From: an uncultured cyanobacterium
GTDB taxonomy: Bacteria; Cyanobacteriota; Cyanobacteriia; CAKZMO01
Length of the DNA stretch: 64,000 bases
NCBI GenBank assembly: GCA_963719515.1
Contig: CAVRCJ010000018.1
Location: forward strand, 1 to 64,000
Direction: 5' to 3'
This document shows, one piece after another, positions 20,760 to 35,891 of this stretch. Position 1 is the first letter of the stretch. Each line of letters begins with the position of its first letter. The position numbers and the translations under genes are program-made. Under the pieces are notes generated by a model. That model was not told where the DNA came from. It saw only the letters and a list, made by a program, of their open reading frames with translations, and searched no databases.

Positions 20760-20886
20760 GTCGGTCTACGTCAGCTCGCACTTGAGCGGCGGGCCTCGTA
20801 GCGCACCGTGAGGAGTAGCCGCGATCGCCGCGTAGAGGCTAGATGGCGCTTTAAGGGCGATCGCCATAGCGGGTGGGGAAGCCCGA

Positions 20887-21261
20887 CTACCGAATGGGCC
20901 GCTGCTGGATGAGGTAGCTGAGCACCTGGCCATGGGTGGGGGTGATGTGGACGCCACGATCGCCAATGGCAATTAGCGGGGTCCACAGCCGCCATTCCAC
21001 GTACTGCAGCACGTGCAGCCGGTTAATGGCTTGGCGCACGCCTTCGGGGGAGCCGATGATGATGTGCCGCAGATGTGAGTCTTCGACTGGTCCTGAAGGG
21101 CCAACGCAACCTGGCGCTGGCGAGGGCTCAATCAGCGTGGGGATAGCCGGGTCCGCTTCTAGAGGGGAGTCTAGCCGCAGCGCAGCGGGTTCCGCAGCGG
21201 GGTTTTGGGGCGCTGCAAACTGTGCCGCCCCTTGGGGCAGCGATGGGTATTGAGTTGTCAT
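20887..21261 (-). CDS. Small cyanobacterial hypothetical protein, module copy 1
   Basis: LRHIIIGSPEGVRQAINRLHVLQYVEWRLWTP conserved across three copies with synonymous changes; GGAG RBS. Confidence 0.8.
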   Translation of the reverse strand: MTTQYPSLPQGAAQFAAPQNPAAEPAALRLDSPLEADPAIPTLIEPSPAPGCVGPSGPVEDSHLRHIIIGSPEGVRQAINRLHVLQYVEWRLWTPLIAIGDRGVHITPTHGQVLSYLIQQRPIR

Positions 21262-21485
21262 GAGGGACTCCATTTTTTGAGTTGAGTTGGAGTCCCCCGC
21301 CGACCGATCATCCTCGACGTTTTTTGGGGGTGGGATGACCAGGTACCATGTACTCCAGGCGTCCCGACAGCCACGTTCTGTCGCGGGGGCTTAGGGGCTG
21401 CATGTTGCGACATCAACATGCGGCTCCGCCCAAGACCGAATCTTTGGGAGACTAGAACCATGGGGACCACGGCTCATAGCTCCCG
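21262..21485 (-). ncRNA. Putative structured leader RNA, module copy 1
   Basis: Conserved stems GCATGTTG/CAACATGC, CGACAG/CTGTCG, GGGACTCC/GGAGTCCC; TTGCCA-17-TATTCT promoter upstream. Confidence 0.6.
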
Positions 21486-21584
21486 AGAATAGATCATTTG
21501 TGGGCGGGTGGCAAGAGGGTAGCGTGATTTTCTGAGATGTGGCGTTGGGCGATCGCTTTGGGGGATTGGCGATCGCGGTTCGGG

Positions 21585-21785
21585 AGAACTGTTGACCTGC
21601 TTAGCAGTTCTAAATTGTTGCTTTGGAGTTCTGTTGAGCTGCTAATGAGTTGAGCAGTGCTACTCTCTAGTTCTGCTGAGCTGCTCAGGAGTTCTAAAAT
21701 GCTGCTCGGGAGTTCTGTTGAGCTGCTTGGGAGTTCTGTAGACCGACTCACCAGTTCTGCTGGCTTGCTTGGGAGTGCTGCTGTG
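21585..21785. repeat. Degenerate 21-nt tandem repeats
   Basis: Recurring AGTTCTG(T/C)TGAGCTGCT unit; minus-strand frame gives ELxSxST heptads; second copy at 28655-28835. Confidence 0.75.
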
Positions 21786-22367
21786 GGGCGATCGCTGCAT
21801 AGAATGGAGCAAGCTCCCGTATATTGAGAGGAAGCAATCTTCAGCCAGGGCAATGATTCTTGCCATAAACCAGGAGAAACTCACTAGCGTAATAAATGTA
21901 GGATTTTCCAGCTCTGAGGCCGTAGCGCCTTACACAAAACGCCTATTTTACTCAATTCAGGAGTTGATAATACTGCAATTTTAGAATGGATAATTGCGAT
22001 ACAATGCCACTACATAGGCACTCTCTGAGAAAGCGATGAATAACGCTCTAGAGTCCATATTTATATGAATAATGTAGAGGCGATAAGAAGATACACAATA
22101 GCTCCGAATTTTTAAAGATAGACACTAAATGTGGTGAATAGTCATGAGAAGAAGGGCATTATCTGTTAGACGTGCTTCGGAAGGCGAGGCATTATTTGGG
22201 AGAATCTAATGTTGAGTGCATAGTTGGCTTGTCGATTTGAAGGATCTTGGAAATGGACAAGCCAGTAGCATTTTTTCGATTCGCTCCGCGACTTGCTCAA
22301 TGTGCTATAAGCAGCTTAGTTGATCCAGTCTAAAATTGAATCCATTTTCAGCTTATAAAAAATTCCT

Positions 22368-23063
22368 ATGGTATATTCACATTCAGCTCTGAGGTTAAAG
22401 CAATTGGAAGACAATATCAGCCATGTCTTACAACTATTGAATGAGTATGAAAAAGAATTACTTGACGAAGACGATCCTAGCAGGATAAGTAGGTATCGTC
22501 GCCGCGTCGAAACGCTGAGGCAGCAAAAGAAAAAATACGAAGAAGAGTTTTTAGATCTACAAGACAAACTGAAAAGCAAATACCCAAATCGAATTCAATC
22601 TCTTTCTAGTCAAATTCAGAATATTGATAACAAGATTGACTCATTTCTAGAAGGTCAAGTAGGACTTTCTCAAGAATTAATGTTACATTTTAGCTCTGAA
22701 GTTCAATGCCTCATTCTACCTCTTGCGCAAAAGCTAAATCAGTCTGAGATTGTAAAATCAAAGAAGCTTTTAGAATCCATAGATAAAAATCTCGTTCCAG
22801 AAGAAAGCATGCGCTTAATATTGTCAGAGATCAGTCAAGCAATAAAAATATCGCAAGACGAAAAACTACATCTTCCGGAAGAAAGCGAGATTGTTGCTGA
22901 AATAATCAATTCGCCAGAAATTGATGCAAAGCACGCGTTAAAGGTCTCAATTCCTATTATTCCTTTCGTTCTCGCATATGAAGGAGAATTAGGATTGGGG
23001 ACTGGAATCAATCTTAAAGAGTTTTGGACAAATTTGAGATCGAAGTTTATCAAGGATAGTTGA
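22368..23063 (+). CDS. Hypothetical protein with N-terminal coiled-coil effector-associated-like domain; first gene of the Lamassu-like operon
   Basis: Low GC; stop overlaps next start; LLDEDDP helical hairpin; C-terminal KVSIPIIPFVLAYEGEL. Confidence 0.75.
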   Translation: MVYSHSALRLKQLEDNISHVLQLLNEYEKELLDEDDPSRISRYRRRVETLRQQKKKYEEEFLDLQDKLKSKYPNRIQSLSSQIQNIDNKIDSFLEGQVGLSQELMLHFSSEVQCLILPLAQKLNQSEIVKSKKLLESIDKNLVPEESMRLILSEISQAIKISQDEKLHLPEESEIVAEIINSPEIDAKHALKVSIPIIPFVLAYEGELGLGTGINLKEFWTNLRSKFIKDS

Positions 23064-23713
23064 GCTTTATGAATTGGCGAGAGGAAAGAAAGCTTGGCCT
23101 TGACAAAAATATGCTTAAAATTGTAAAGCTTCTTGGCACATGCGAACAAAGTTTGATTGATGAGAGCGATCCTCAAGCTAGAAATAAGCTAGAAGCTCAA
23201 ATTTCTAAACTTAGGGAAGACATGAGTAACTGCCAATCAGATTTGGAGAGACATGAGTCAGTATCTTATACTCCATCGGGTTCTGCCTTAGCAATGGCCA
23301 GTATCGCTTATGATGACATTACATTTGTGATTACAGCCCTTTTGAATCAGAGAGCAAATTTTTCAGATGGACAGAGCATTTTTCAACCCACTAACCCCGA
23401 AGAAAAAATGTCTAAGAATTATTTGACACACGAAATTAAATTTGCCCTGGGCATGGGTTTAGCTAAAGCAGGCGAAGTGCGCCATTTTATCGAGCAAAAT
23501 GCAAAGATCTACTTCCCTGATGTTCCAGAAAGACTCAAGGCAGCTTTAAATATCGAATATAAGAGGCTGCTTAGTCAGGGTATCCGAGGAGACGAGCTAT
23601 TCAATCAGCTTTATAGATTTTCGCACCAAAATAGTTCAAATACCTCGCGCCAGCTGGCAGGTTTAGCAGTTTTATGTTACTTCTTTGAAACTTGCGATAT
23701 TTTTGAGCCGTGA
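23060..23713 (+). CDS. Lamassu LmuA-like protein (ABC-three-component C-terminal domain)
   Basis: C-terminal LAVLCYFFETCDIFE motif typical of ABC-3C CTD; no catalytic N-terminal domain recognised. Confidence 0.8.
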   Translation: MSFMNWREERKLGLDKNMLKIVKLLGTCEQSLIDESDPQARNKLEAQISKLREDMSNCQSDLERHESVSYTPSGSALAMASIAYDDITFVITALLNQRANFSDGQSIFQPTNPEEKMSKNYLTHEIKFALGMGLAKAGEVRHFIEQNAKIYFPDVPERLKAALNIEYKRLLSQGIRGDELFNQLYRFSHQNSSNTSRQLAGLAVLCYFFETCDIFEP

Positions 23714-23937
23714 TATTACCTGATAAGTATATTTCAGTAGATAACTCATTACTAGGAGTTGGTGCTATTATCATAAAATATTTGAATCAGCCTCGAACAG
23801 TGACTTCCCTTTGGAGCGATTTATCTAAGATTTCAGAAGTTTCTACCTTTGAGCGATTTGTTCTAGGACTTAATTTGCTTTATATGATTGGGGCTATTGA
23901 ACTAAAGGAAGGCTTACTCCAAAAGCGTCGCCAATGA
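23710..23937 (+). CDS. Lamassu LmuC-like protein (ABC-3C middle component)
   Basis: MILPDKYISVDNSLLGVGA...LNLLYMIGAI; 75 aa; lies between CTD gene and ATPase gene. Confidence 0.85.
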   Translation: MILPDKYISVDNSLLGVGAIIIKYLNQPRTVTSLWSDLSKISEVSTFERFVLGLNLLYMIGAIELKEGLLQKRRQ

Positions 23938-25679
23938 TAAACTCTATATTTGCAAATAAAGACTCCTTTAAGCCAGTTGAATTCGCGCATGGATTCAATG
24001 TAATATTAGCCGATCGCACAGATTATTCTAGTTCTAGAGACTCGCGCAACGGTTTAGGAAAGTCAAGCCTTATTGAAATTATTCATTTTTGCTTGGGCTC
24101 GAGTCCGCGTAAAGGTACAGGACTAAGAGTATCAAGTTTGAGAGGGTGGTCTTTTGGCCTAAATTTGACTCTAGCAGAGCGCGAAATCATTGCTACGAGA
24201 AGTGTTGATGAACCTACGAAAATTTATTTGCAGGGCAATACTACTGATTGGATAATTCAGCCAAGATCGGAAGAAAATCAGAAATTTTATAAGATAGAAG
24301 AATGGAAAAAGCTGCTTGGATACCTAACTTTCGAATTGGCGATTAATGAGGAACGGCAGTTTGCTCCCAATTTTCGCGGTCTAATTTCCTACTTTATTCG
24401 GCCAGGAAAAGACGCATTTTCTACGCCTTTCGAATACTTTAGGAAGCAACCAGGGTGGCAAAAGCAAGTTCTTAATACTTTTTTGCTAGGGCTTGCCTGG
24501 GAAGATGCCAGCGATTTTCAGAAGATAAAAGAAGAAGGAAATCTGTTAGACAGTCTCAAGAAGCTAAAGACCTCTAATCAAGGTATTATCTCGACAAGAA
24601 TCTTAGGGTCACTTGGAGAGTTGGAAGCTGCTCGAGTCAGAATTGAACAGCAACTGCAAAGGCGGCAAGAGGACTTGAGCAATTTTCGCGTACATCCTCA
24701 GTACAAAGAGCTTCAAAGAGAAGCTAATCTCCTTACTTCTGAAATACATGAAATTACAAATGAGAATATATTTAATCGTCAGCTTTTAAGCTTTTATCAG
24801 TCTAGTGTTGAGCAAGAAAGCGAACCAAACAAAAATGATCTGCTTAGACTATATGAAAGCGCCGGCGTTGAGCTTCCAGGTTTAGTTATTCGCCGTCTGG
24901 AAGAAGTAGAGGCTTTTCACCATAGAATCATCGAGAATAGGCGGGGTTTTCTGCTAACGGAAGTTCAGCGTCTAAGGCGAACTATTGCTGATCTAGAGCA
25001 GTTAATTCAAAGAAAAATTGAACAGCGAGCTGAGAGGCTTGAAATTCTACAGACTCACGGTGCTTTAGAAGAATATACTAGGCTCCAAGAATTGTACTTG
25101 GAGACGCGCTCCGACCTCAATGATATTAATAAGCGTATCGATGAGCTGAGAAAAGTAGAAGAGGGAAAAAGTGCTCTTCGGATAGAAAAAGAGCTTTTAC
25201 AGCAAAGAGCACGCCGAGATTATGAAGAGCGCTATGCTCAGGCTGAGCGGGCGATTACACTATTCAATTCAAATTCGCAAGCCCTCTATGATGCTCCAGG
25301 AACGCTTGCGATAAATGTAGGCTCAGGCGGATTTCAATTTAATGTTGAAATTGAAAGAGATCGCAGTGAAGGAATTGGCAAAATGAAGATTTTTTGCTAT
25401 GATCTAATGCTTGCCCAACTATGGGCACAACGGGAAACATCCCCTGGCATTCTTATTCACGATAGTACTATTTTTGATGGCGTCGATGAACGTCAGGTTG
25501 GTCTAGCACTTGAATTGGCAGCTAGAGAATCAGAACGACTTGGCTTCAAATATGCCTGCGCTCTCAACTCAGATATGGTCCCGTTAACAGAATTTTCACC
25601 TGAATTTGATTTCGATTCTTTTATAAGGCTTAGGTTGACTGACGATGAGGGCGGAAACCTTTTTGGCATCGAATTTTGA
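23934..25679 (+). CDS. Lamassu LmuB SMC-like ABC ATPase (DUF2326-type)
   Basis: Walker A SRNGLGKSS, long coiled coil, LIHDSTIFDGVDERQ Walker B/D-loop region. Confidence 0.9.
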   Translation: MINSIFANKDSFKPVEFAHGFNVILADRTDYSSSRDSRNGLGKSSLIEIIHFCLGSSPRKGTGLRVSSLRGWSFGLNLTLAEREIIATRSVDEPTKIYLQGNTTDWIIQPRSEENQKFYKIEEWKKLLGYLTFELAINEERQFAPNFRGLISYFIRPGKDAFSTPFEYFRKQPGWQKQVLNTFLLGLAWEDASDFQKIKEEGNLLDSLKKLKTSNQGIISTRILGSLGELEAARVRIEQQLQRRQEDLSNFRVHPQYKELQREANLLTSEIHEITNENIFNRQLLSFYQSSVEQESEPNKNDLLRLYESAGVELPGLVIRRLEEVEAFHHRIIENRRGFLLTEVQRLRRTIADLEQLIQRKIEQRAERLEILQTHGALEEYTRLQELYLETRSDLNDINKRIDELRKVEEGKSALRIEKELLQQRARRDYEERYAQAERAITLFNSNSQALYDAPGTLAINVGSGGFQFNVEIERDRSEGIGKMKIFCYDLMLAQLWAQRETSPGILIHDSTIFDGVDERQVGLALELAARESERLGFKYACALNSDMVPLTEFSPEFDFDSFIRLRLTDDEGGNLFGIEF

Positions 25680-25706
25680 TGTTGAATTTACGAACTCAGC
25701 ACACGA

Positions 25707-25802
25707 TCTAATGCTCGGTTGACGCGAACGGTATAGGATTTATTCGCACAGGTTTAAGGTTGTCTGTAGACGCCGCACTTCGCCGTGTAAGCTACATTAG
25801 CT
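25707..25802 (+). other. Possible degenerate attC site
   Basis: TCTAATG...CATTAGC complementary ends shortly after the LmuB stop; resembles cyanobacterial attC-like repeats. Confidence 0.35.
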
Positions 25803-25816
25803 GAGATGATCCATAC

Positions 25817-26995
25817 GTGATGCCAATTCTGATCCTGAGCCTAACAGGCCTTTTCCTCAGCCTATGGATCGTCGTGCCAGCCCCCACCCGCTTCCTGCTG
25901 CCGCTAGGCGTAGGCGCACCCGAAGTCAGCCCCTGGCTAGCTGTAGTAAACGCGATCGCCCTCCTCCTACTGCTCTTCAGCCGCATCCGGGGCACAGCCA
26001 GACTCCTCATCCTCTCTTGTAGCCTGCTAGGGCTGGGGCTAAGCCTGTCGCCCCTGGCCCAATTCCCCGCCGCCAACCGCCAAATCGCCGCCGAAATGCG
26101 CGCCGTGCTGGGGGATGACTACCTCACTGGCATCCCGGCGATCGCCCTTCAGCCCCTGCGCCCCCGCCCCTTAGTCCTAGCAGACGTCTTTCGCGGCATT
26201 GCCCTAGATGAGGTGCGCATCGACCGGGGCATCGAGTTTGCCCAGCCGGATGGGGTCGCTCTGCACCTCAACCTTTACCGACCGCTAGCCCCAGGCCGCA
26301 ATCCCACCGTTGTGGTGATCTACGGCGGCGCATGGCAGAGCGGCAGCCCAGACAGCAGCGATCGCTTCAGCCGCTACATGGCCGCCCAGGGCTACACAGT
26401 GGTCGCGATCGACTATCGCCACGCGCCGGGCTACCGCTTTCCAGCCCAGGAGGAAGATGTGCGCGCTGCCCTAGCCTACATTCAGAGCAACGCCGAGGCG
26501 CTATCGGTAGACCCAGGCCGCGTGGCGCTGCTGGGGCGATCGGCTGGGGCGCAGCTGGCGGCGATCGCAGCCTATGGGGCACCAGAATCACTGCCGGTGC
26601 AGGCGGTGGTCAATTATTACGGGCCGGTGGATTTGACGGCGGGCTACCAGGACCCCCCAACTCCCGACCCAATCGATACTCGCGCCGTGTTGAGAGCATT
26701 TTTGGGCGGTCCCCCCGACGCGGCCCCTGAGCTTTACCGGCAGGCGTCCCCAATCAGCTATGTTGAACCGGGTTTACCGCCAACGCTGCTGGTCTATGCC
26801 GGACGCGACCATGTGGTGCAGGCTGAGTATGGTCGTCAGCTCTATGAGGGGCTGCGGGCTGCGGGCAATCAGGTGGTTTGGCTGGAGGTTCCCTGGGCTG
26901 AACATGCTTTTGATGCAGTGTTTAATGGCGTTAGTAACCAACTGGCGCTGTACTATACGGAGCGCTTTGTTGCCTGGGCGCTGAAGTCGGCCTAA
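25817..26995 (+). CDS. Membrane-anchored alpha/beta hydrolase (esterase/lipase)
   Basis: YGGAW oxyanion motif, GRSAG nucleophile motif, AEHAFD. Confidence 0.88.
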   Translation: MMPILILSLTGLFLSLWIVVPAPTRFLLPLGVGAPEVSPWLAVVNAIALLLLLFSRIRGTARLLILSCSLLGLGLSLSPLAQFPAANRQIAAEMRAVLGDDYLTGIPAIALQPLRPRPLVLADVFRGIALDEVRIDRGIEFAQPDGVALHLNLYRPLAPGRNPTVVVIYGGAWQSGSPDSSDRFSRYMAAQGYTVVAIDYRHAPGYRFPAQEEDVRAALAYIQSNAEALSVDPGRVALLGRSAGAQLAAIAAYGAPESLPVQAVVNYYGPVDLTAGYQDPPTPDPIDTRAVLRAFLGGPPDAAPELYRQASPISYVEPGLPPTLLVYAGRDHVVQAEYGRQLYEGLRAAGNQVVWLEVPWAEHAFDAVFNGVSNQLALYYTERFVAWALKSA

Positions 26996-27319
26996 GCTAC
27001 TACATTGGTGCTGCTGCCTGCTCATCACTGTCTCTGGACTTTACCTCAAGAGGACAGCGCATCGAAGACGAACCCTGCGATCGCCCTATACACAAAGCCG
27101 GGAAGGCGAGAAGATGTCTTGCACTTCGATATTACTGTTGATGGCGAGCATGACACTGGATAACAATTCTGCTGGATTGCTTAAGCAATGATAGACAACG
27201 CGGCTGTCCATGACCGCTCCACAATGAGCGCGATTACCCAGGCCATAGGCTTTGAGCCATCTGATACAGTCAATTGGAAGCCCTAAGAGCAAAAGCGAAG
27301 CGGCACACCTAGGAGAACA

Positions 27320-27724
27320 ATGACTGACACTGATATTGATACGGCCTGTCAGCTGCTTAAAAAAATTGACTACCAGCCGGTAGAGACGCTAGACCGTCCA
27401 GCAAATGCTGAAATTCAGGCCGCACTAAAAACCGTAGCTCAAAAGTCAGAGTTTCAGATTTTTGGCGTTTGCGCAGGCGGTTTAGGTGAAGGCGTGGCTG
27501 CCCTGAAGGGCTATACCCAGGCGCTTGGATATGATATTCCCCAGGACTTGACGTTCGACCCGGTGGAAGGGGCCGTCTACATCAAGTTCAATCCTAAATC
27601 GGGCCTTCTATATGCCAACAGCTACACAGGAGACCACCGAGGGGTTTTAGTGTCGTGTCAATCGCCCTATGACGGTGGCCTGAATGAAATGTATGGTCAT
27701 CTACCGCTGGATTTGTTCTCCTGA
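27320..27724 (+). CDS. DUF1824 family protein
   Basis: IFGVCA, VYIKFN, RGVLVSCQS, GHLPLDLF motifs. Confidence 0.8.
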   Translation: MTDTDIDTACQLLKKIDYQPVETLDRPANAEIQAALKTVAQKSEFQIFGVCAGGLGEGVAALKGYTQALGYDIPQDLTFDPVEGAVYIKFNPKSGLLYANSYTGDHRGVLVSCQSPYDGGLNEMYGHLPLDLFS

Positions 27725-27963
27725 GCGCCGCTGCTGTCCCTGGCGGAATTTGGATTTCTAGCTCATAAAACCAATCACAAAGCAGCTAGCGCTTGCTTTC
27801 CCTTGACGATCTGTCTCTCGTCTTAAAAGCAGGGGCCAACTCGTTCAGCGGACTAAGCAGAGCGCACCATGAAACGTCGACAGGCTTTAGGCAAAATGGC
27901 GATCGCCGCGTAGAGGCTAGATGTTGCCTTAAGGGCGATCGCCATAGCGGGTGGGGAGCCCGA

Positions 27964-28338
27964 CTACCGCATGGGCCGCTGCTGGATGAGGTAGCTGAGC
28001 ACCTGGCCATGGGTGGGGGTGATGTGGACGCCTTTTTCACCGATGGCAATCAGCGGGGTCCACAGCCGCCACTCGACGTACTGCAGCACGTGCAGCCGGT
28101 TGATGGCCTGGCGAACGCCTTCGGGGGAGCCAATGATGATGTGCCTCAGGTGTGAGTCTTCGACTGGCCCTGAAGGGCCAACACACCCCGGTGCGGGGGA
28201 GGGCTCAATCAGCGTGGGGATAGCGGGCTCGGCTTCCATGGGGGAATCTAGCCGCAGCGCAGCGGGTTCCGCAGCGGGGTTTTGGGGCGCTGCGAACTGT
28301 GCCGCCTCTTGGGGCAGCGAATGATATTGAGTTGTCAT
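27964..28338 (-). CDS. Small hypothetical protein, module copy 2
   Basis: Paralog of 20887-21261. Confidence 0.8.
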   Translation of the reverse strand: MTTQYHSLPQEAAQFAAPQNPAAEPAALRLDSPMEAEPAIPTLIEPSPAPGCVGPSGPVEDSHLRHIIIGSPEGVRQAINRLHVLQYVEWRLWTPLIAIGEKGVHITPTHGQVLSYLIQQRPMR

Positions 28339-28560
28339 GAGGGACTCCGTTTTTGAGTTAATTGGAGTCCCCCGCCGACCGGACATCCGCGACGTTTTTG
28401 GTTTTGGGATGGCCGGGTAATATCATTACTCCAGGCCGTTCCCGACAGCCACTGTCTGTCGTGGGGGCTTAGGGGCCGCATGTTGGCATCAACAGCATGC
28501 GGCTCCGCCCAGACCGAATCTTTGGGAGACTAGAACCATGGATAACGGCTCATAGCTCCA
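28339..28560 (-). ncRNA. Putative structured leader RNA, module copy 2
   Basis: Same stems as copy 1 with different loops; TTGCCA-18-TACCTT promoter upstream. Confidence 0.6.
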
Positions 28561-28928
28561 TAAGGTAGGACATTTGTGCGCGGGTTGGCAAGAGGGTGGC
28601 GCGGTTTTCTGTTGAGGGTGGCGATCGCTTTGGGGGATTGGCGATCGCGGCTTGAGAGATCTGTTGACCTGCTCAGCAGTTCTAAATTGTTGCTTTGGAG
28701 TTCTGTTGAGCTGCTAACGAGTTGAGCGGGGCTGCTCGCTAGTTCTGCTGACCTGCTCAGGAGTTCTAAAATGCTGCTTAGGAGTTCTGTAGACCGACTC
28801 ACCAGCTCTGCTGGCTTGCTCTGGAGTTCTGCTGTGGGGCGATCGCTGCACGTAATGAAGCAACCTCGCGCAGATGAATAGGAATTGGCCTTTGGTTAGC
28901 AATTACGAAGACTCAAGCCCTTGAGAAT

Positions 28929-29128
28929 TTAATTATCCAGAGGGCTACGCACTCCACGCCCACCCCGATTTAGGACATGCGTGTAAATCATTGGTGGCGC
29001 TTGTCATGGAAGAGGATGAATTCGCAGATGTAGTGAATGTAAGATTTCTCGGTTTTGAGGCTGTAGTGCTTTGTACGAAGCACCTGCTTTACCTGGCCGA
29101 GCAGGCGAGGAGGCTGTGATGACGACAT
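28929..29128 (-). pseudogene. intI: Integron integrase with large internal deletion
   Basis: N-terminus MSSSQPPRLLGQVKQVLRTKHYSLKTEKSYIHYICEFILFHDKRH joined out of frame to C-terminus MIYTHVLNRGGRGVRSPLDN*. Confidence 0.92.
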
Positions 29129-29134
29129 CGCTAA

Positions 29135-29365
29135 TCACGGGATAACACCGATAAATGGGGTGTTGTCTGACAAAAGTGACGGATAATACCCTATAAATCA
29201 TGGTTATCAGACAAGAGCGACGGATAACGCCCTAAATTTCCGGAGTTGGCCGTCAGATGCGGCGGATGATTGCGGAAAGTAGGGTGTTATTCGCTAGATA
29301 TGCCTGATAAGATCTGGGAGGCAGGGTATTATCCGCCAGATCTGACGTTGAATATATAGTTAGAA
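29135..29365 (+). promoter_or_regulatory. attI-like region ending in core site GTTAGAA
   Basis: Lies between the intI start and the cassette; GTTRRRY-like core at 29359-29365; repeated GGATAAYRCCCT motifs. Confidence 0.7.
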
Positions 29366-29406
29366 ATCAAAGGCAGAACCCGTGCAATCATGAGGGAATA
29401 GACAAA

Positions 29407-29592
29407 TTGACATCGAAAAGCCCAAAATACATAGAAGCATTGAAGGTTATCCCAGATGATATAGTTCCTGTATTTGATGAATTACTGGAACACTACAAAT
29501 TTGCTGCGCTAAAGGAGCATGGTAGAGCAATGGTCTCCCCGCTTGCAATTGCTGAGCTTGTGCTCATGGAGTGGAGAAATACCGAAGACTAG
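29407..29592 (+). CDS. Small hypothetical protein, first ORF of the cassette
   Basis: 61-aa ORF after a GAGGG RBS, low GC. Confidence 0.5.
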   Translation: MTSKSPKYIEALKVIPDDIVPVFDELLEHYKFAALKEHGRAMVSPLAIAELVLMEWRNTED

Positions 29593-29622
29593 AGAACCCC
29601 AAAGGCAGAAGACTGATATCGC

Positions 29623-30618
29623 ATGAAAAAAAGAGCACCTAGAAACCGCACGTTGACCTTGGAAGACGATGAAAAAGACACGCTTCTTAGGGAAACTATC
29701 ACACTTCAATCTGCTTGTGAGGCAGAGCAAATAGAAGGAAAAGTTATAAATCAGGATATTTTTTCTTGTATTGAATACTTGCCAGGCAATTTTATTGATC
29801 TTCTTGTAATTGATCCACCATACAATCTCAATAAAAAATTTGGTGAAAGCAAATTCTCTAAGAAATCAGAAGATTCTTATCAGGAATGGCTTGAATCATG
29901 GATACCAAATCTCAAGAGATGTCTGAAGAAAGACGCCTCTTTATATGTATGTTGTGATTGGCAATCTTCAAAGCCAGTTCAAGCCGTGCTTGAACGATAT
30001 TTTACAATCCGCAATCGCATCACATGGGAAAGAGAAAAAGGAAGGGGCGCAAAAACAAATTGGAAGAATTGTTCAGAAGACATTTGGTTTTGTACTATGT
30101 CAAATGATTACTATTTTGACGTCGAGGCGGTAAAACTTAAGAGGAAAGTAATTGCGCCTTATCGACATTCGTCAGGAAAACCGAAGGATTGGGAGGAAAC
30201 ACCTAAAGGAAATTACCGTCTAACACACCCCTCGAATTTATGGACGGATATATCTATTCCATTCTGGTCAATGCCGGAAAACACAGATCATCCTACTCAA
30301 AAGCCAGAAAAATTAATCGCAAAGTTAATTCTTGCAAGCTCTAGGGAGGGTGATTTTGTCTTTGACCCGTTTCTCGGTTCTGGCACGACATGCGTAGTTT
30401 CAAAAAAATTAGGTAGGCGATTCTCTGGCATAGAGATTGAATCTGAATATTGCGCTATGACAGTAAAACGACTTGCTCGCGCCGACTCTGACAACATCAT
30501 TCAAGGCTACCATGATGGTTATTTTTGGGAACGCAACAGCCTTGCCAAGCAAAAACAGAGCAAGAAAAAAAATAGTCAAGGTCAGGATGTTGTGATGGGA
30601 CTGTTTGATGAGCAATAA
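29623..30618 (+). CDS. N4-C/N6-A DNA methyltransferase (beta class)
   Basis: DPPY precedes HPTQKP and DPFLGSGTT. Confidence 0.92.
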   Translation: MKKRAPRNRTLTLEDDEKDTLLRETITLQSACEAEQIEGKVINQDIFSCIEYLPGNFIDLLVIDPPYNLNKKFGESKFSKKSEDSYQEWLESWIPNLKRCLKKDASLYVCCDWQSSKPVQAVLERYFTIRNRITWEREKGRGAKTNWKNCSEDIWFCTMSNDYYFDVEAVKLKRKVIAPYRHSSGKPKDWEETPKGNYRLTHPSNLWTDISIPFWSMPENTDHPTQKPEKLIAKLILASSREGDFVFDPFLGSGTTCVVSKKLGRRFSGIEIESEYCAMTVKRLARADSDNIIQGYHDGYFWERNSLAKQKQSKKKNSQGQDVVMGLFDEQ

Positions 30619-31765
30619 AATAAATGAGCTATTAGCGTTTATCGAAGAGCATAATGGTATTAACGATAAATCGAAATTATGTAAGCTTGTGGCGGATAAA
30701 TTTTCATTAACGAAAGACCGCTCTGTTTTTTATTGCAAAGAGTTTGCCATACGTTATAGCTCATCAAACAGCCAGAGCTTTTCAAATACAGTGCTTTCCT
30801 TATCCAAACTACAAAAGGTCGATGATCGCCCGTTTTTAGTTTGCCTAGTTGCCCCTAGTAGAAATCATATCCTTTTATCAAACACTACGTTCTTGAAAAA
30901 GATAAGCCACAGCTCTCAAGAGCTTCGTGAGAACAATATTCGTGGCAGCTTCAACGGCTCCGACATTATGCGAGAATTTGAAGGTATCGAGAACAAGCCA
31001 GAAAATATTGAACGGTTATTTAATATACACGCAGAAATCGGTTTTGAAGGCAACTTGGTACGCTTGGTTGAGGCAACGAACAATATTAGTCCTTCTGGAA
31101 CGAAATTTGCGCCAACTAATACGCAAATAGCCACTATATTAGATGCTCCACGCAGGGCCGTTGGTTTTGTTGGTAGTGATGATTTGCGGACGCTCAAGGA
31201 TGAATTGGATGTAAAGGTTGATCAATATAAGAACGAAATCTTGCTGGCTGGGCTGATAGAGAATGTGAATGTACGTGGGAGGATAATAGAATATCTGATT
31301 GCTGGTGAAGATGAGAGACTAAGGCAAGAAATTATAGATGCACTTTTGCAGAAATCTAACGGAATACCACAGTTTAAAACAGAAAATACTCTTGGCGATT
31401 ATTCGAGGGAGTTTGAAGAATATTTTACTGAGACAGATGTAAAGACAAAAATCATGGTTCTTAATTCAAACCCGAAAGCGTACAACCTTGATAAGGTTCT
31501 TGAGTTTTTGGCGACGAAAAAATCGGTGTTTATGTTTTATTTTGTAGGGATTGCACCAACAAAGATTGTTAACACAGTTCTAGTATCAATGTTTCAAGAA
31601 GACCTATTGAATTCAACTCTACTGCTAAAACACTGGTCAGGAAGAAATTCTAGGGGTGTTAGTCAGTTTGAGGGAAAAACAATTGGTAGGTTGATACTTT
31701 CACCGAAAAGTCACATCGACAATGAGAAAGCAACTAGCTTCCTTCGTAGGTTATTAGAGTTGTGA
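30605..31765 (+). CDS. Putative type II restriction endonuclease
   Basis: Overlaps the MTase gene; GD...TDVK PD-(D/E)xK-like motif; low GC. Confidence 0.65.
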   Translation: MMSNKINELLAFIEEHNGINDKSKLCKLVADKFSLTKDRSVFYCKEFAIRYSSSNSQSFSNTVLSLSKLQKVDDRPFLVCLVAPSRNHILLSNTTFLKKISHSSQELRENNIRGSFNGSDIMREFEGIENKPENIERLFNIHAEIGFEGNLVRLVEATNNISPSGTKFAPTNTQIATILDAPRRAVGFVGSDDLRTLKDELDVKVDQYKNEILLAGLIENVNVRGRIIEYLIAGEDERLRQEIIDALLQKSNGIPQFKTENTLGDYSREFEEYFTETDVKTKIMVLNSNPKAYNLDKVLEFLATKKSVFMFYFVGIAPTKIVNTVLVSMFQEDLLNSTLLLKHWSGRNSRGVSQFEGKTIGRLILSPKSHIDNEKATSFLRRLLEL

Positions 31766-31771
31766 AATTGA

Positions 31772-31843
31772 TTCTAACAAGGCGCTGCAACGGACGGCAA
31801 TTCCGCTGCGCTCCATTGCCACCGGTGAGCTTGGTCGCTATGA
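31772..31843 (+). other. Integron attC site
   Basis: TTCTAACAAGGCGCTGCAACGGACGGCAATTCCGCTGCGCTCCATTGCCACCGGTGAGCTTGGTCG; R'' TTCTAAC is the exact complement of GTTAGAA at the cassette start; distal core degenerate (GCT). Confidence 0.88.
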
Positions 31844-32267
31844 GGTTGATACAGTGCGATCGCAGATCTTGTAGAGTACATTGCTGAACATCAAACACAC
31901 CATTTTGCTGGACACCCCAACATCGCTCTTTCACCTGCACTCACACACCCGACTATCGAAGATCTAAAACTGCATACCCATGCCCAGAATTTGAGCTAAA
32001 CATGCAATGGGAGCAATAGCGCGTTTGCTCACCGCAACCCACCCCAAAAGAACCGCGATCGCACTATAAGTAGGCGACCTAAGCCTAGCGACATCAGCTC
32101 GCACTGAAGCGGCGCACCATAACAAATGAGAATTGCGGGCCGGGCTGCCCCCAATTAAAGTTCCGTAGCCCTAGTCACAAAGGATGCCAATGGTTTGAAC
32201 TACTGTTGGCATGCAATCGACAGAACGGCAGCCGCTGCGCCAAGAGGGAGCGGTAGCTAAAGGGGGA

Positions 32268-33902: not shown

Positions 33903-33967
33903 GCGATCGCCGTGTAGAGGCTAGATGTCGCTCTAAGGGCGATCGCCATAGCGGGTGGGTCGTCCGA

Positions 33968-34315
33968 CTACCGAATGGGCCGCTGCTGGATGAGGTAGCT
34001 GAGCACCTGACCTTGGGCGGGGGTGATGTGGACGCCGCGATCGCCGATGGCAATCAGCGGGGTCCACAGCCGCCACTCGACGTACTGCAGCACGTGCAGC
34101 CGGTTGATGGCTTGGCGAACGCCTTCGGGGGAGCCGATGATGATGTGCCTCAAGTGCTCGCAGCCGGGGGCTGGGGAGGGCTCAAGCAGCGTGGGGATAG
34201 CGGGTTCGGCTTCCATGGGGGAATCTAGCCGCAGCGCAGCGGGTTCCGCAGCGGGGTTTTGGGGCGCTGCGAACTGTGCCGCCTCTTGGGGCAGCGAATG
34301 ATATTGAGTTGTCAT
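33968..34315 (-). CDS. Small hypothetical protein, module copy 3
   Basis: Paralog with an in-frame 27-nt deletion in the Pro-rich linker. Confidence 0.8.
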   Translation of the reverse strand: MTTQYHSLPQEAAQFAAPQNPAAEPAALRLDSPMEAEPAIPTLLEPSPAPGCEHLRHIIIGSPEGVRQAINRLHVLQYVEWRLWTPLIAIGDRGVHITPAQGQVLSYLIQQRPIR

Positions 34316-34540
34316 GAGGGACTCCGTTTTTGAGTTAATTGGAGTCCCCCGCCGACCGGACATCCGCGACGTTTTTGGTTTTGGGATGGCCGGGTAATAT
34401 CATTACTCCAGGCCGTTCCCGACAGCCACTATCTGTCGTGGGGGCTTAGGGGCTGCATGTTGTCATCAGCAACATGCGGCTCCGCCCAGACCGAATCTTT
34501 GGGAGACTAGAACCATGGGGACCACGGCTCATAGCTCCAT
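34316..34540 (-). ncRNA. Putative structured leader RNA, module copy 3
   Basis: Same stems as copies 1 and 2. Confidence 0.6.
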
Positions 34541-34892
34541 AAGGTAGGACATTTGTGCGTGGGTTGGCAAGAGGGCAGCGCGGTTTTCTGTTGAGGGTGG
34601 CGATCGCTTTGGGGAGGGTGGCGATCGCAGCTTGGGAGAGCTATTGGCCAGCTTAGCAGTTCTGAGATCTTGCTTTTTTCAAGCGCTCATCGACTGATCA
34701 CTGAAGAAATTTATTCGCCAAACCGGGGTGAATGCCTAGAGTTTGGGCTGAATATGCAATGAGAGTGATGGTGCAATCGCTTATCGAAATGCGCACTACA
34801 AGATCCTCGATTGCACTTATTTTATGAGTCAGGGCATACTTATAAGGCCCCTACTGTAGTCTAGCGACTCAGCCAACTTAGAATCTGTCAAC

Positions 34893-35642
34893 ATGCAGCA
34901 ATCCGAGTCAAAAATTGCTTTGCTGATCGATGCAGACAATGCTCCCGCATCGAAAATTGAGTCAATTCTATCTGAAATTGCGAAATATGGAGTTGCCAAC
35001 ATCCGCAGAGCTTATGGCAACTGGAAAAGCTCAAATTTGCAATCGTGGGAGGAGTGCTTACATGAATACGCTATCCGCCCAGTCCAACAGTTCGATTACA
35101 CCAAAGGTAAAAATGCTACTGATGCATCAATGATTATTGATGCGATGGACTTACTTTACACGCAACAGCTAGATGCCTTTGCTATTGTGTCTAGCGATTG
35201 CGACTTCACTCCTCTAGTGATGAGGATTTTGACAAATGGCTTGAAAGCCTATGGATTTGGTGAGAAGAAGACTCCTCTAGCCTTTGTCAATGCTTGCTCA
35301 ACATTTCTATATCTTGAAACAATTAATCAGACTATAGCTTCTGAAGAGGAATCAAGGTCTGCTAAAAGCGCCAGAAAAACCAGTGAAGAGCTGAAGCAAG
35401 ATGCAAAGTTAATGAATTTATTGCGGAGCGCTATTTCTAGTACTCTAGATGATGATGGTTGGTCAAGCTTAGCAGTCCTTGGTGGACATATTAAGAATCA
35501 GGCATCTTTCGATTCGCGCAACTATGGGTACGCCAAATTGAGTGGCCTTTTTGAGGCTATTGATCTATTCGAGATTCGGAGAAAAAATAAAGCAGTCCAT
35601 GTGAGAAATAAGCAAAAGGGAAATGTCAGCTCAAAGAAATAG
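34893..35642 (+). CDS. NYN domain protein with C-terminal OST-HTH/LOTUS domain
   Basis: LLIDADN, GKNATD, SSDCDFTPL, FDSRNYGYAKLSGL motifs; low GC. Confidence 0.88.
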   Translation: MQQSESKIALLIDADNAPASKIESILSEIAKYGVANIRRAYGNWKSSNLQSWEECLHEYAIRPVQQFDYTKGKNATDASMIIDAMDLLYTQQLDAFAIVSSDCDFTPLVMRILTNGLKAYGFGEKKTPLAFVNACSTFLYLETINQTIASEEESRSAKSARKTSEELKQDAKLMNLLRSAISSTLDDDGWSSLAVLGGHIKNQASFDSRNYGYAKLSGLFEAIDLFEIRRKNKAVHVRNKQKGNVSSKK

Positions 35643-35891
35643 CTATTAGCGATCGCAACTCAGCCCGATTTAGCCCTTCATCTACGAAATAGGGCCTTCC
35701 ATCTGCTAAGGCCGCACCACGCAGGGGGGCCGGGCTGCGGTCGGAGTTGATGTGTTGGCAGCGGTTCCGATGGACTGAGCTGAGGTGGAGAATCGGCGAT
35801 CGCCGTCGAGAATAGAAGACGGCGCAGAAACTGCCGTGACGCTGGAATGCCCAGGTTTTCCCTCCGCTACAGCCTTAGCCTTTCAGTCAGG

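Follow-up and report, generated by a model that had tools for sequence, protein, structure and literature searches.

A 64,000-nucleotide stretch of DNA from an uncultured cyanobacterium (contig CAVRCJ010000018.1, positions 1 to 64,000; hereafter the window) carries a locus that is very probably a pseudo-integron with a fixed restriction-modification (R-M) cassette, that is, a chromosomal integron of a cyanobacterium which was functional until recent times and has since died. The locus forms an AT-rich island (39-44% GC) between GC-rich genes and consists of a remnant of the integron integrase gene intI, an attI site with a repeat array, one gene cassette and one attC site, with intI and the cassette divergent as is standard for integrons. 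A sequence-only reading of the same DNA had proposed either a frozen integron with a locked-in defence cassette or one served in trans by another integron integrase (IntI). The first proposal is supported by an assembly that lacks IntI, by a Type II R-M gene pair in the cassette and by an attC that is mutated and predicted to misfold.

On the minus strand, intI is reduced to exactly 200 bp, from an ATG at 29128 to a TAA at 28929. The N-terminal remnant comprises codons 1-45 (28992..29128) and was recognized by PF13495, by TIGR02249 and by alignment to intact genes; the corresponding open reading frame (ORF; 46 aa, 29128..28988, minus strand) scores 34.6 bits against PF13495 (cut-off 27) and matches the integron integrase models TIGR02249 and PRK15417 (positions 1-37 and 15-52). 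The last 20 codons and the stop (28929..28991, minus strand) follow in another frame, and this piece is identical at 19/19 positions to residues 302-320 of a relative's intact IntI. The deletion junction lies at about 28991-28994. Four of five comparisons with relatives' intact genes put the deletion at 769-770 bp (the fifth comparison was misframed), so the N- and C-terminal pieces are fused out of frame. The locus therefore has a recognizable intI pseudogene (PF13495, TIGR02249 and PRK15417) and lacks the functional IntI of a complete integron, a tyrosine recombinase with an integron-specific extra domain. Much of this had been anticipated by the sequence-only reading, which described a 200 bp intI whose N-terminus is joined near 28992 to the C-terminus on the minus strand, with most of the catalytic domain deleted; the fragments do align to integron integrases (TIGR02249, PRK15417 and tblastn with the relative's IntI), and the loss of about 769 bp removes the whole catalytic domain. 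The fused 46-aa peptide was considered as a functional product and set aside as unsupported: it is frameshifted and the junctions vary between genomes. Retention of the N-terminal stub for holding the Pc promoter was not supported either, since the stub contains no promoter-like site.

The source assembly (5.28 Mb in 21 contigs, the window being contig C18) is rated 100% complete, and the search for an intact intI elsewhere in it, which the sequence-only reading had suggested as a check, found none. TIGR02249 matched only the window's stub across the assembly, tblastn with a relative's IntI returned stubs only, and the single tyrosine recombinase detected with PF00589 is not among the TIGR02249 matches. 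An assembly artefact hiding a complete intI is a very improbable cause of the collapse. Repeats do lie on both sides of the region; among public runs, no RNA run was listed for the organism, and one sediment run (share 0.06) yielded no joints at the locus, only short pieces of other organisms. However, the stub carries private amino-acid changes, the breaks in the genome's other intI copies lie elsewhere in the gene, and relatives show internal intI deletions of their own. One of these, G011 from the same genus, keeps codons 1-52 and 282-320, and several more family members have internal deletions or paired N- and C-terminal fragments. Divergence between the window and G011 stubs (dS about 1.0-1.2, dN 0.02-0.05), together with their different junctions, indicates that the collapse in the window is recent and independent of that in G011. 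Three of the four intI stubs in the genome end near codons 43-46, which may reflect a breakpoint cluster or an alignment-end effect.

Next to the 5′ end of intI lies the intI-attI spacer with attI (29129..29361, plus strand), delimited by repeat analysis and homologous sites, in which a palindromic unit of about 41.5 bp recurs about 5.5 times. The whole spacer from intI to the crossover is a repeat array, 234-250 bp long in 21 sites that keep an intI start. In those 21 sites, TTATC-type boxes near -30, -72, -113, -155 and -197 alternate with inverted GATAA-type boxes near -53, -94, -136, -178 and -219, giving ten alternately inverted boxes with a 41.5-bp phase, about two helical turns apart. 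We infer that the boxes are putative accessory IntI sites or overlapping divergent promoters. A promoter scan returned three weak sigma-70-like sites compared with 1.2 ± 1.2 in shuffles, which is chance level; two of the three, scored in testing for Pc, lie inside the array in opposite directions.

The attI crossover, G|TT, was placed at 29359|29360 because homologous sites, including those beside intact intI, agree up to GTT and are unrelated beyond it; GTT was part of the attI search pattern, whereas the divergence beyond it was not. The window array departs from the consensus at 8 of 107 conserved columns, compared with 3-5 at six sites beside full-length intI and 1-17 in the whole set, the consensus having been drawn from an alignment that included the window copy. 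A search of viral contigs gave no exact match for the attI motif.

The cassette (29360..31837, plus strand; 2,478 bp, three ORFs) was delimited by its attI and attC ends and by a copy at the locus L061. Its GC content is 39.7%, compared with about 57% for host contigs. L061 carries an 87% identical cassette that starts exactly at the equivalent of window position 29359, behind unrelated DNA, and ends in a canonical attC with GTT, so the cassette ends are fixed independently of the window. The first ORF (29407..29592, plus strand) encodes 61 aa and has 34 homologues at 69-87% identity; it stops 8 codons early, the homologues being mostly 69-72 aa (8-11 residues longer). It has no Pfam, PADLOC or NCBIfam match, and a role as a controller protein was rejected for want of a helix-turn-helix motif and of any family match.

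The second ORF (29623..30618, plus strand) encodes an amino (N6A/N4C) DNA methyltransferase (PF01555, 160 bits; PADLOC MTase_II, 225 bits) in which DPPY (residue 64) precedes FxGxG (residue 250), the beta order. It is adjacent to and overlaps the third ORF (30608..31765, plus strand), which encodes an intact Type II restriction endonuclease of 385 aa (PADLOC REase_II, 525 bits; no Pfam match), and the two form the gene pair expected of a Type II R-M system. Of 7,999 candidates that were scored, 3,579 are homologues of the endonuclease, and the candidate catalytic residues D264-D277-K279 are invariant in 76 of its homologues. No solved structure related to it by sequence was found. In its structure model (mean pLDDT 69) the C-terminal domain is similar, at moderate scores, to HincII and to R.SwaI (Z 8.2, rmsd 3.9, 150 aligned), so that both the residues and the predicted fold are of the PD-(D/E)xK type. 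The model also shows a second PD-(D/E)xK-like fold at residues 1-96 (window 30608-30900), which is Hjc/EcoRV-like with Z about 5-7. The methyltransferase is likewise present in 25 of 26 related endonuclease loci, the remaining one being cut by a contig end. At four close loci (L062, L065, L066 and L084) no attC was matched by eye or by model, which implies that the R-M pair is not always a cassette. A recognition site could not be inferred from palindrome avoidance. With its genes intact, the cassette is a putatively working Type II R-M pair accompanied by the 61-aa ORF, in agreement with the earlier suggestion of a single cassette with defence genes.

A heuristic genome-wide attC scan proved too noisy, with 1,010 candidates, and a covariance model was used in its place. 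Its training sites were 17 other attCs that follow related attI sites, with the window's attC left out. Run unfiltered on the 64-kb window, this model recovered the 72 bp attC (31772..31843, plus strand) at 36.3 bits (E 5.3e-6; next best 15 bits). The site has R″, L″, L′ and R′ boxes, and R″ (TTCTAAC) is complementary to the first seven bases of the cassette. The sequence-only reading had identified GTTAGAA at 29359 and, 2.4 kb on, an attC starting with the complementary TTCTAAC and ending in a GCT rather than a GTT distal core; each of these elements was recovered here, and the covariance match at 31772-31843 is the one that it had proposed as a check. Folded as an isolated 72-mer, the bottom strand is predicted not to form the recombinogenic hairpin: its L-box pairing of 0.01 is the lowest of 20 attC sites, whereas the L061 version is predicted at 0.98. 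Three other low L-box pairings (0.09-0.41) all belong to terminal sites in this genome. With a GCT core (R′) and this predicted folding, the window's attC does not appear to be recombination-ready.

The GCT core is best read as a GTT→GCT point change. Non-GTT cores occur at 5/92 attI sites, which indicates that point decay of the core is common, and the bases after the window's core read ATG, GTTATG being the start of 13/92 first cassettes compared with 1/64 by chance. Alternatively, the GCT end could be a junction at which IntI recombined attC with a secondary chromosomal site, removing a distal array or inserting the module; an empty host allele would then read through G|CTATGAGG. Cassettes inserted in the genome can be cut out via nearby genomic sites, as described in 10.1101/2022.09.11.507474, and the covariance model matched no second attC in the window or downstream of this one. 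However, GCT does not fit the secondary-site consensus GWT reported in the same source, and the ATG after the core matches the cassette start GTTATG, whose frequency is far above chance. We consider such a junction improbable and retain the point change. An octamer of the cyanobacteria-associated type named HIP1 (PMC4390886), of which the assembly contains 7,737 (one per 682 bp), lies 12 bp past attC (31856..31863, by motif match, unstranded); it is a possible right edge of the module and may be chance. Right after attC, an inverted repeat of two HIP1 sites surrounds about 150 bp (window 31850-32068), and positions 31980-32065 resemble 34732-34817 (71%).

Taken as a pseudo-integron, the locus suggests the following sequence of events. 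The R-M cassette would have been inserted by attI × attC recombination while IntI was functional. A deletion whose ends shared little or no homology would then have collapsed the integrase gene, and attC would have decayed through the GTT→GCT change and loss of the recombinogenic hairpin, so that not even a visiting integrase could still excise the cassette efficiently. Type II R-M genes defend against phage and foreign DNA and punish their own loss, and for these reasons the pair would have persisted. The locus would be one of several modules in the genome, each consisting of a dispersed repeat (repeat X, below), an intI stub, an attI array and cassettes. Given an assembly without IntI and a doubly damaged attC, the cassette is most likely locked in.

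Several points weigh against this account. The intI deletion is read from the assembly, which is in 21 contigs and may miss an IntI that lies in a gap or on a plasmid. Among four genus relatives, we found no empty or allelic version of the locus; the genes that flank it occur there in other contexts. The low dN/dS values against L061 (0.08-0.10 for the R-M genes, 0.22 for the 61-aa ORF) mostly reflect time before capture, expression and restriction activity of the R-M pair are putative, and the attC folding prediction concerns the isolated 72-mer only. Finally, the word dead fits the integrase and attC and not surely attI, the last 30 bp of which match the consensus. Because the attI core is intact, loading of new cassettes into it by a visiting integrase is conceivable. 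The earlier proposal of service in trans is thus divided: for the window, the lack of a resident IntI speaks against it and excision is unlikely, whereas other cyanobacterial sites lend it indirect support for this attI class.

A sequence model of the last 108 attI positions revealed five clear and three faint copies in this genome, and for one of the faint copies (C11:188 kb) no tie to an integron was established. Nine of the 11 attC matches in the genome (two of the 11 belonged to the training set of the model) lie downstream of attI copies (the window and four others) in the right orientation. The other two attC sites have no upstream attI copy: one (G000:C4:91761-91846) follows an AT-rich 393-aa pentapeptide-repeat-like ORF, and one (G000:C13:43863-43949) has a GTC core. 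Each of these five attI copies carries different cassettes, and the intI stubs at the other copies end at different junctions, one of them at HIP1, from which each module appears to have lost intI by its own deletion.

The attI model matches at least 38 of 151 genomes sampled from the class (among the best 25 candidates per genome). TIGR02249 exceeds its cut-off in 48 of the same 151 genomes, so other integron types exist; it does so in none of five genomes chosen for multiple attI copies, which are drafts with two stubs at contig ends. We then took a census of the 84 sites whose upstream flank spans at least 1.3 kb, drawn from the sampled genomes and 16 metagenome loci; 24 of 108 rows were left out for low score, short flank or internal-repeat matches, and some rows are the same locus in kin. 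By tblastn, 49 of the 84 sites have no intI (some of these keep 10-70 nt stubs visible to the DNA model), 17 have an N-terminal stub, nine have other fragments and three show N+C collapse. Near-full intI adjoins the remaining six: at three the gene is full but frameshifted, and at three there is one full-length match, interrupted in one case by an internal stop.

The scarcity of near-full intI at these attI-type sites is in keeping with a second explanation, in which such loci are satellite docking sites. The attI array would be kept working without its own integrase and reloaded by IntI in trans, supplied by another locus, a plasmid or transient DNA; short blocks edged by HIP1 would carry the modules about, inside one genome and from genome to genome, and the R-M cassette may postdate the collapse. 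Yet attI itself served to find the sites, so the count presupposes that attI is retained. Support comes from L096 and L141, the same intI-less locus in two strains, 98% identical over 2.2 kb upstream and sharing a HIP1 left junction; one holds two cassettes, the other a single different one, and they rejoin at the terminal G|TT. Divergence between them is raised around attI, however, as allele replacement would give. Among the 78 sites without full intI, 10 pairs share the flank past the stub to the crossover, and 10/10 differ beyond; one of the ten, the two C1 copies, has different deletions and does not count, and dropping it leaves five groups. These five site groups, each with one dead-intI flank and different cassettes, suggest possible reloading by an integrase acting in trans, although gene conversion or transformation could put one intI deletion onto arrays loaded earlier, and the orthologous pairs L090/L094 and L092/L167 (at least 99.5% identity) carry the same cassettes.

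At L133 (G048:C31:9500-21500) three tandem stub+attI blocks are interleaved with four attC sites, and two of the blocks begin exactly at the preceding attC's crossover, as if attI blocks had moved like cassettes. One cyanobacterial plasmid is annotated as carrying an intact integron integrase, but its spacer does not match the window array, and our plasmid search gave one match, which covers just the intI C-terminus. According to PMC8946536, recombination is generally inefficient when IntI and attI are non-cognate. HIP1 is weakly enriched at the left edges of 48 solo attI sites (9 within 50 nt, 4.8 expected), and as a general left-edge mark it was judged weak (5 vs 2.9 at 25 nt; 14 vs 8.2 at 100 nt). 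None of the reloading evidence concerns the window's own locus. We regard the satellite explanation as a tentative one with the odds against it, and return to the pseudo-integron with a fixed cassette.

On the 3′ side of intI, the locus abuts a dispersed cyanobacterial repeat module of about 1 kb (repeat X; 27899..28856, minus strand), delimited by its copies and by the edge of homology. It comprises a HIP1 octamer (27899-27906), a small ORF (27964-28338), a structured leader and 42-nt repeats (28647-28856), and it has no Pfam, NCBIfam or Rfam match. Copies 83-90% identical occur at 20.8 kb and 33.9 kb in the window, three times on C1 and on C10; homology begins at HIP1 in 6/7 close copies, and the ORF family gives 58 tblastn rows in the genome. 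Each of the three copies in the window is beside AT-rich cargo, one of them abutting the intI 3′ end, and related ORFs are also found upstream of attI sites in other families. Beside a further repeat-X copy, at G000:C11:452317-453275, is a frameshifted homologue (63%) of the cassette methyltransferase. No Rfam family matched the integron locus; Yfr1 RNA was matched in the Rfam scan and, together with the many HIP1 octamers, identifies the DNA as cyanobacterial.

Window positions 20821-25810 contain a second, more decayed module, with repeat X, a faint intI stub (21850-21975) and a faint attI (22129-22225, 29.7 bits), downstream of which is a three-gene ABC-3C-like/PADLOC PDC-M68 defence cluster (22368-25679). 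The third repeat X (33903-35770) starts from a HIP1 directly past the stop codon of an amidase gene, and an AT-rich NYN/OST-HTH gene comes next; this region yielded no attI. Two hairpins that look attC-like on inspection, one behind the ABC-3C-like genes (about 25707-25810) and one behind the NYN gene (about 35655-35765), gave no model match. An esterase end and its neighbouring gene, which we take to be DUF1824-like (26664-27760), have an 81-83% identical copy at G000:C13:46578-47544; that copy has a short attI-like remnant between the two genes, and the region looks like a mosaic of relatives' blocks.

Beyond the window, the attI sites raise the possibility, which we consider less likely than not, that cyanobacteria run a distributed integron in which many integrase-less, ten-box attI modules per genome serve as satellite docking sites. 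If so, modules would multiply by copying and take up defence and toxin-antitoxin cassettes anew, IntI would be present at one locus only, on a plasmid or transiently in the population, and the window would be a site with its cassette welded in and its attI still open. Single-attC, intI-less sites would then be missed by surveys that need intI or clustered attC sites. Through a sequence model, the regular and conserved attI architecture could bring to light integron platforms to which current tools are blind, and pairs of alleles that lack intI but differ in their cassettes make the long-suggested idea of service in trans testable in a polyploid, HIP1-rich phototroph. No description of the ten-box array or of solo attI sites was found in a search of titles and abstract openings that covered few subscription journals; supplements of PMC4889954 or of bioRxiv preprints might list cyanobacterial sites.

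Dead integrons and defence cassettes are already well known, and the locus itself is an ordinary outcome. Inactivation of intI is common, at about one third to 46% in the reports consulted (PMC2426708, 10.1101/2025.06.18.660453, PMC3108266). Close parallels are the pseudo-integrons described by Nemergut 2008 (PMC2426708) and Cambray 2011 (PMC3108266) and those of Xanthomonas, in which likewise intI is dead, cassettes are left and a genome may hold several integrons. Xanthomonas integrons are described as one ancestral locus by ilvD (10.1101/2025.06.18.660453), whereas here a genome has at least five dispersed platforms, of which most carry between one and four cassettes and many retain hardly any intI. 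The window also resembles CALIN (clustered attC sites lacking an integrase; Cury 2016, PMC4889954) in having an attC-bounded cassette without a working integrase, an arrangement proposed there as a reservoir or fixation step, and possible use of integrase-less arrays in trans is discussed in the same paper. As defined in PMC4889954, however, CALIN need at least two attC sites and ignore attI, so the window's lone attC, accompanied by a full attI and an intI stub, would be discarded. Type II restriction is among the prevalent defence cassettes of sedentary chromosomal integrons (10.1101/2024.07.02.601686), as in the window, but that work concerns large arrays, mainly of Vibrio, and the string 'cyanobact' is absent from its main text. 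Finally, attI1 of class 1 integrons similarly combines a core site with upstream repeats that possibly bind the integrase and favour attI × attC recombination (PMC8946536); attI1 has two direct repeats, DR1 and DR2, whereas here ten boxes, inverted in alternation and strictly phased at 41.5 bp, occupy the 237-bp spacer from end to end.

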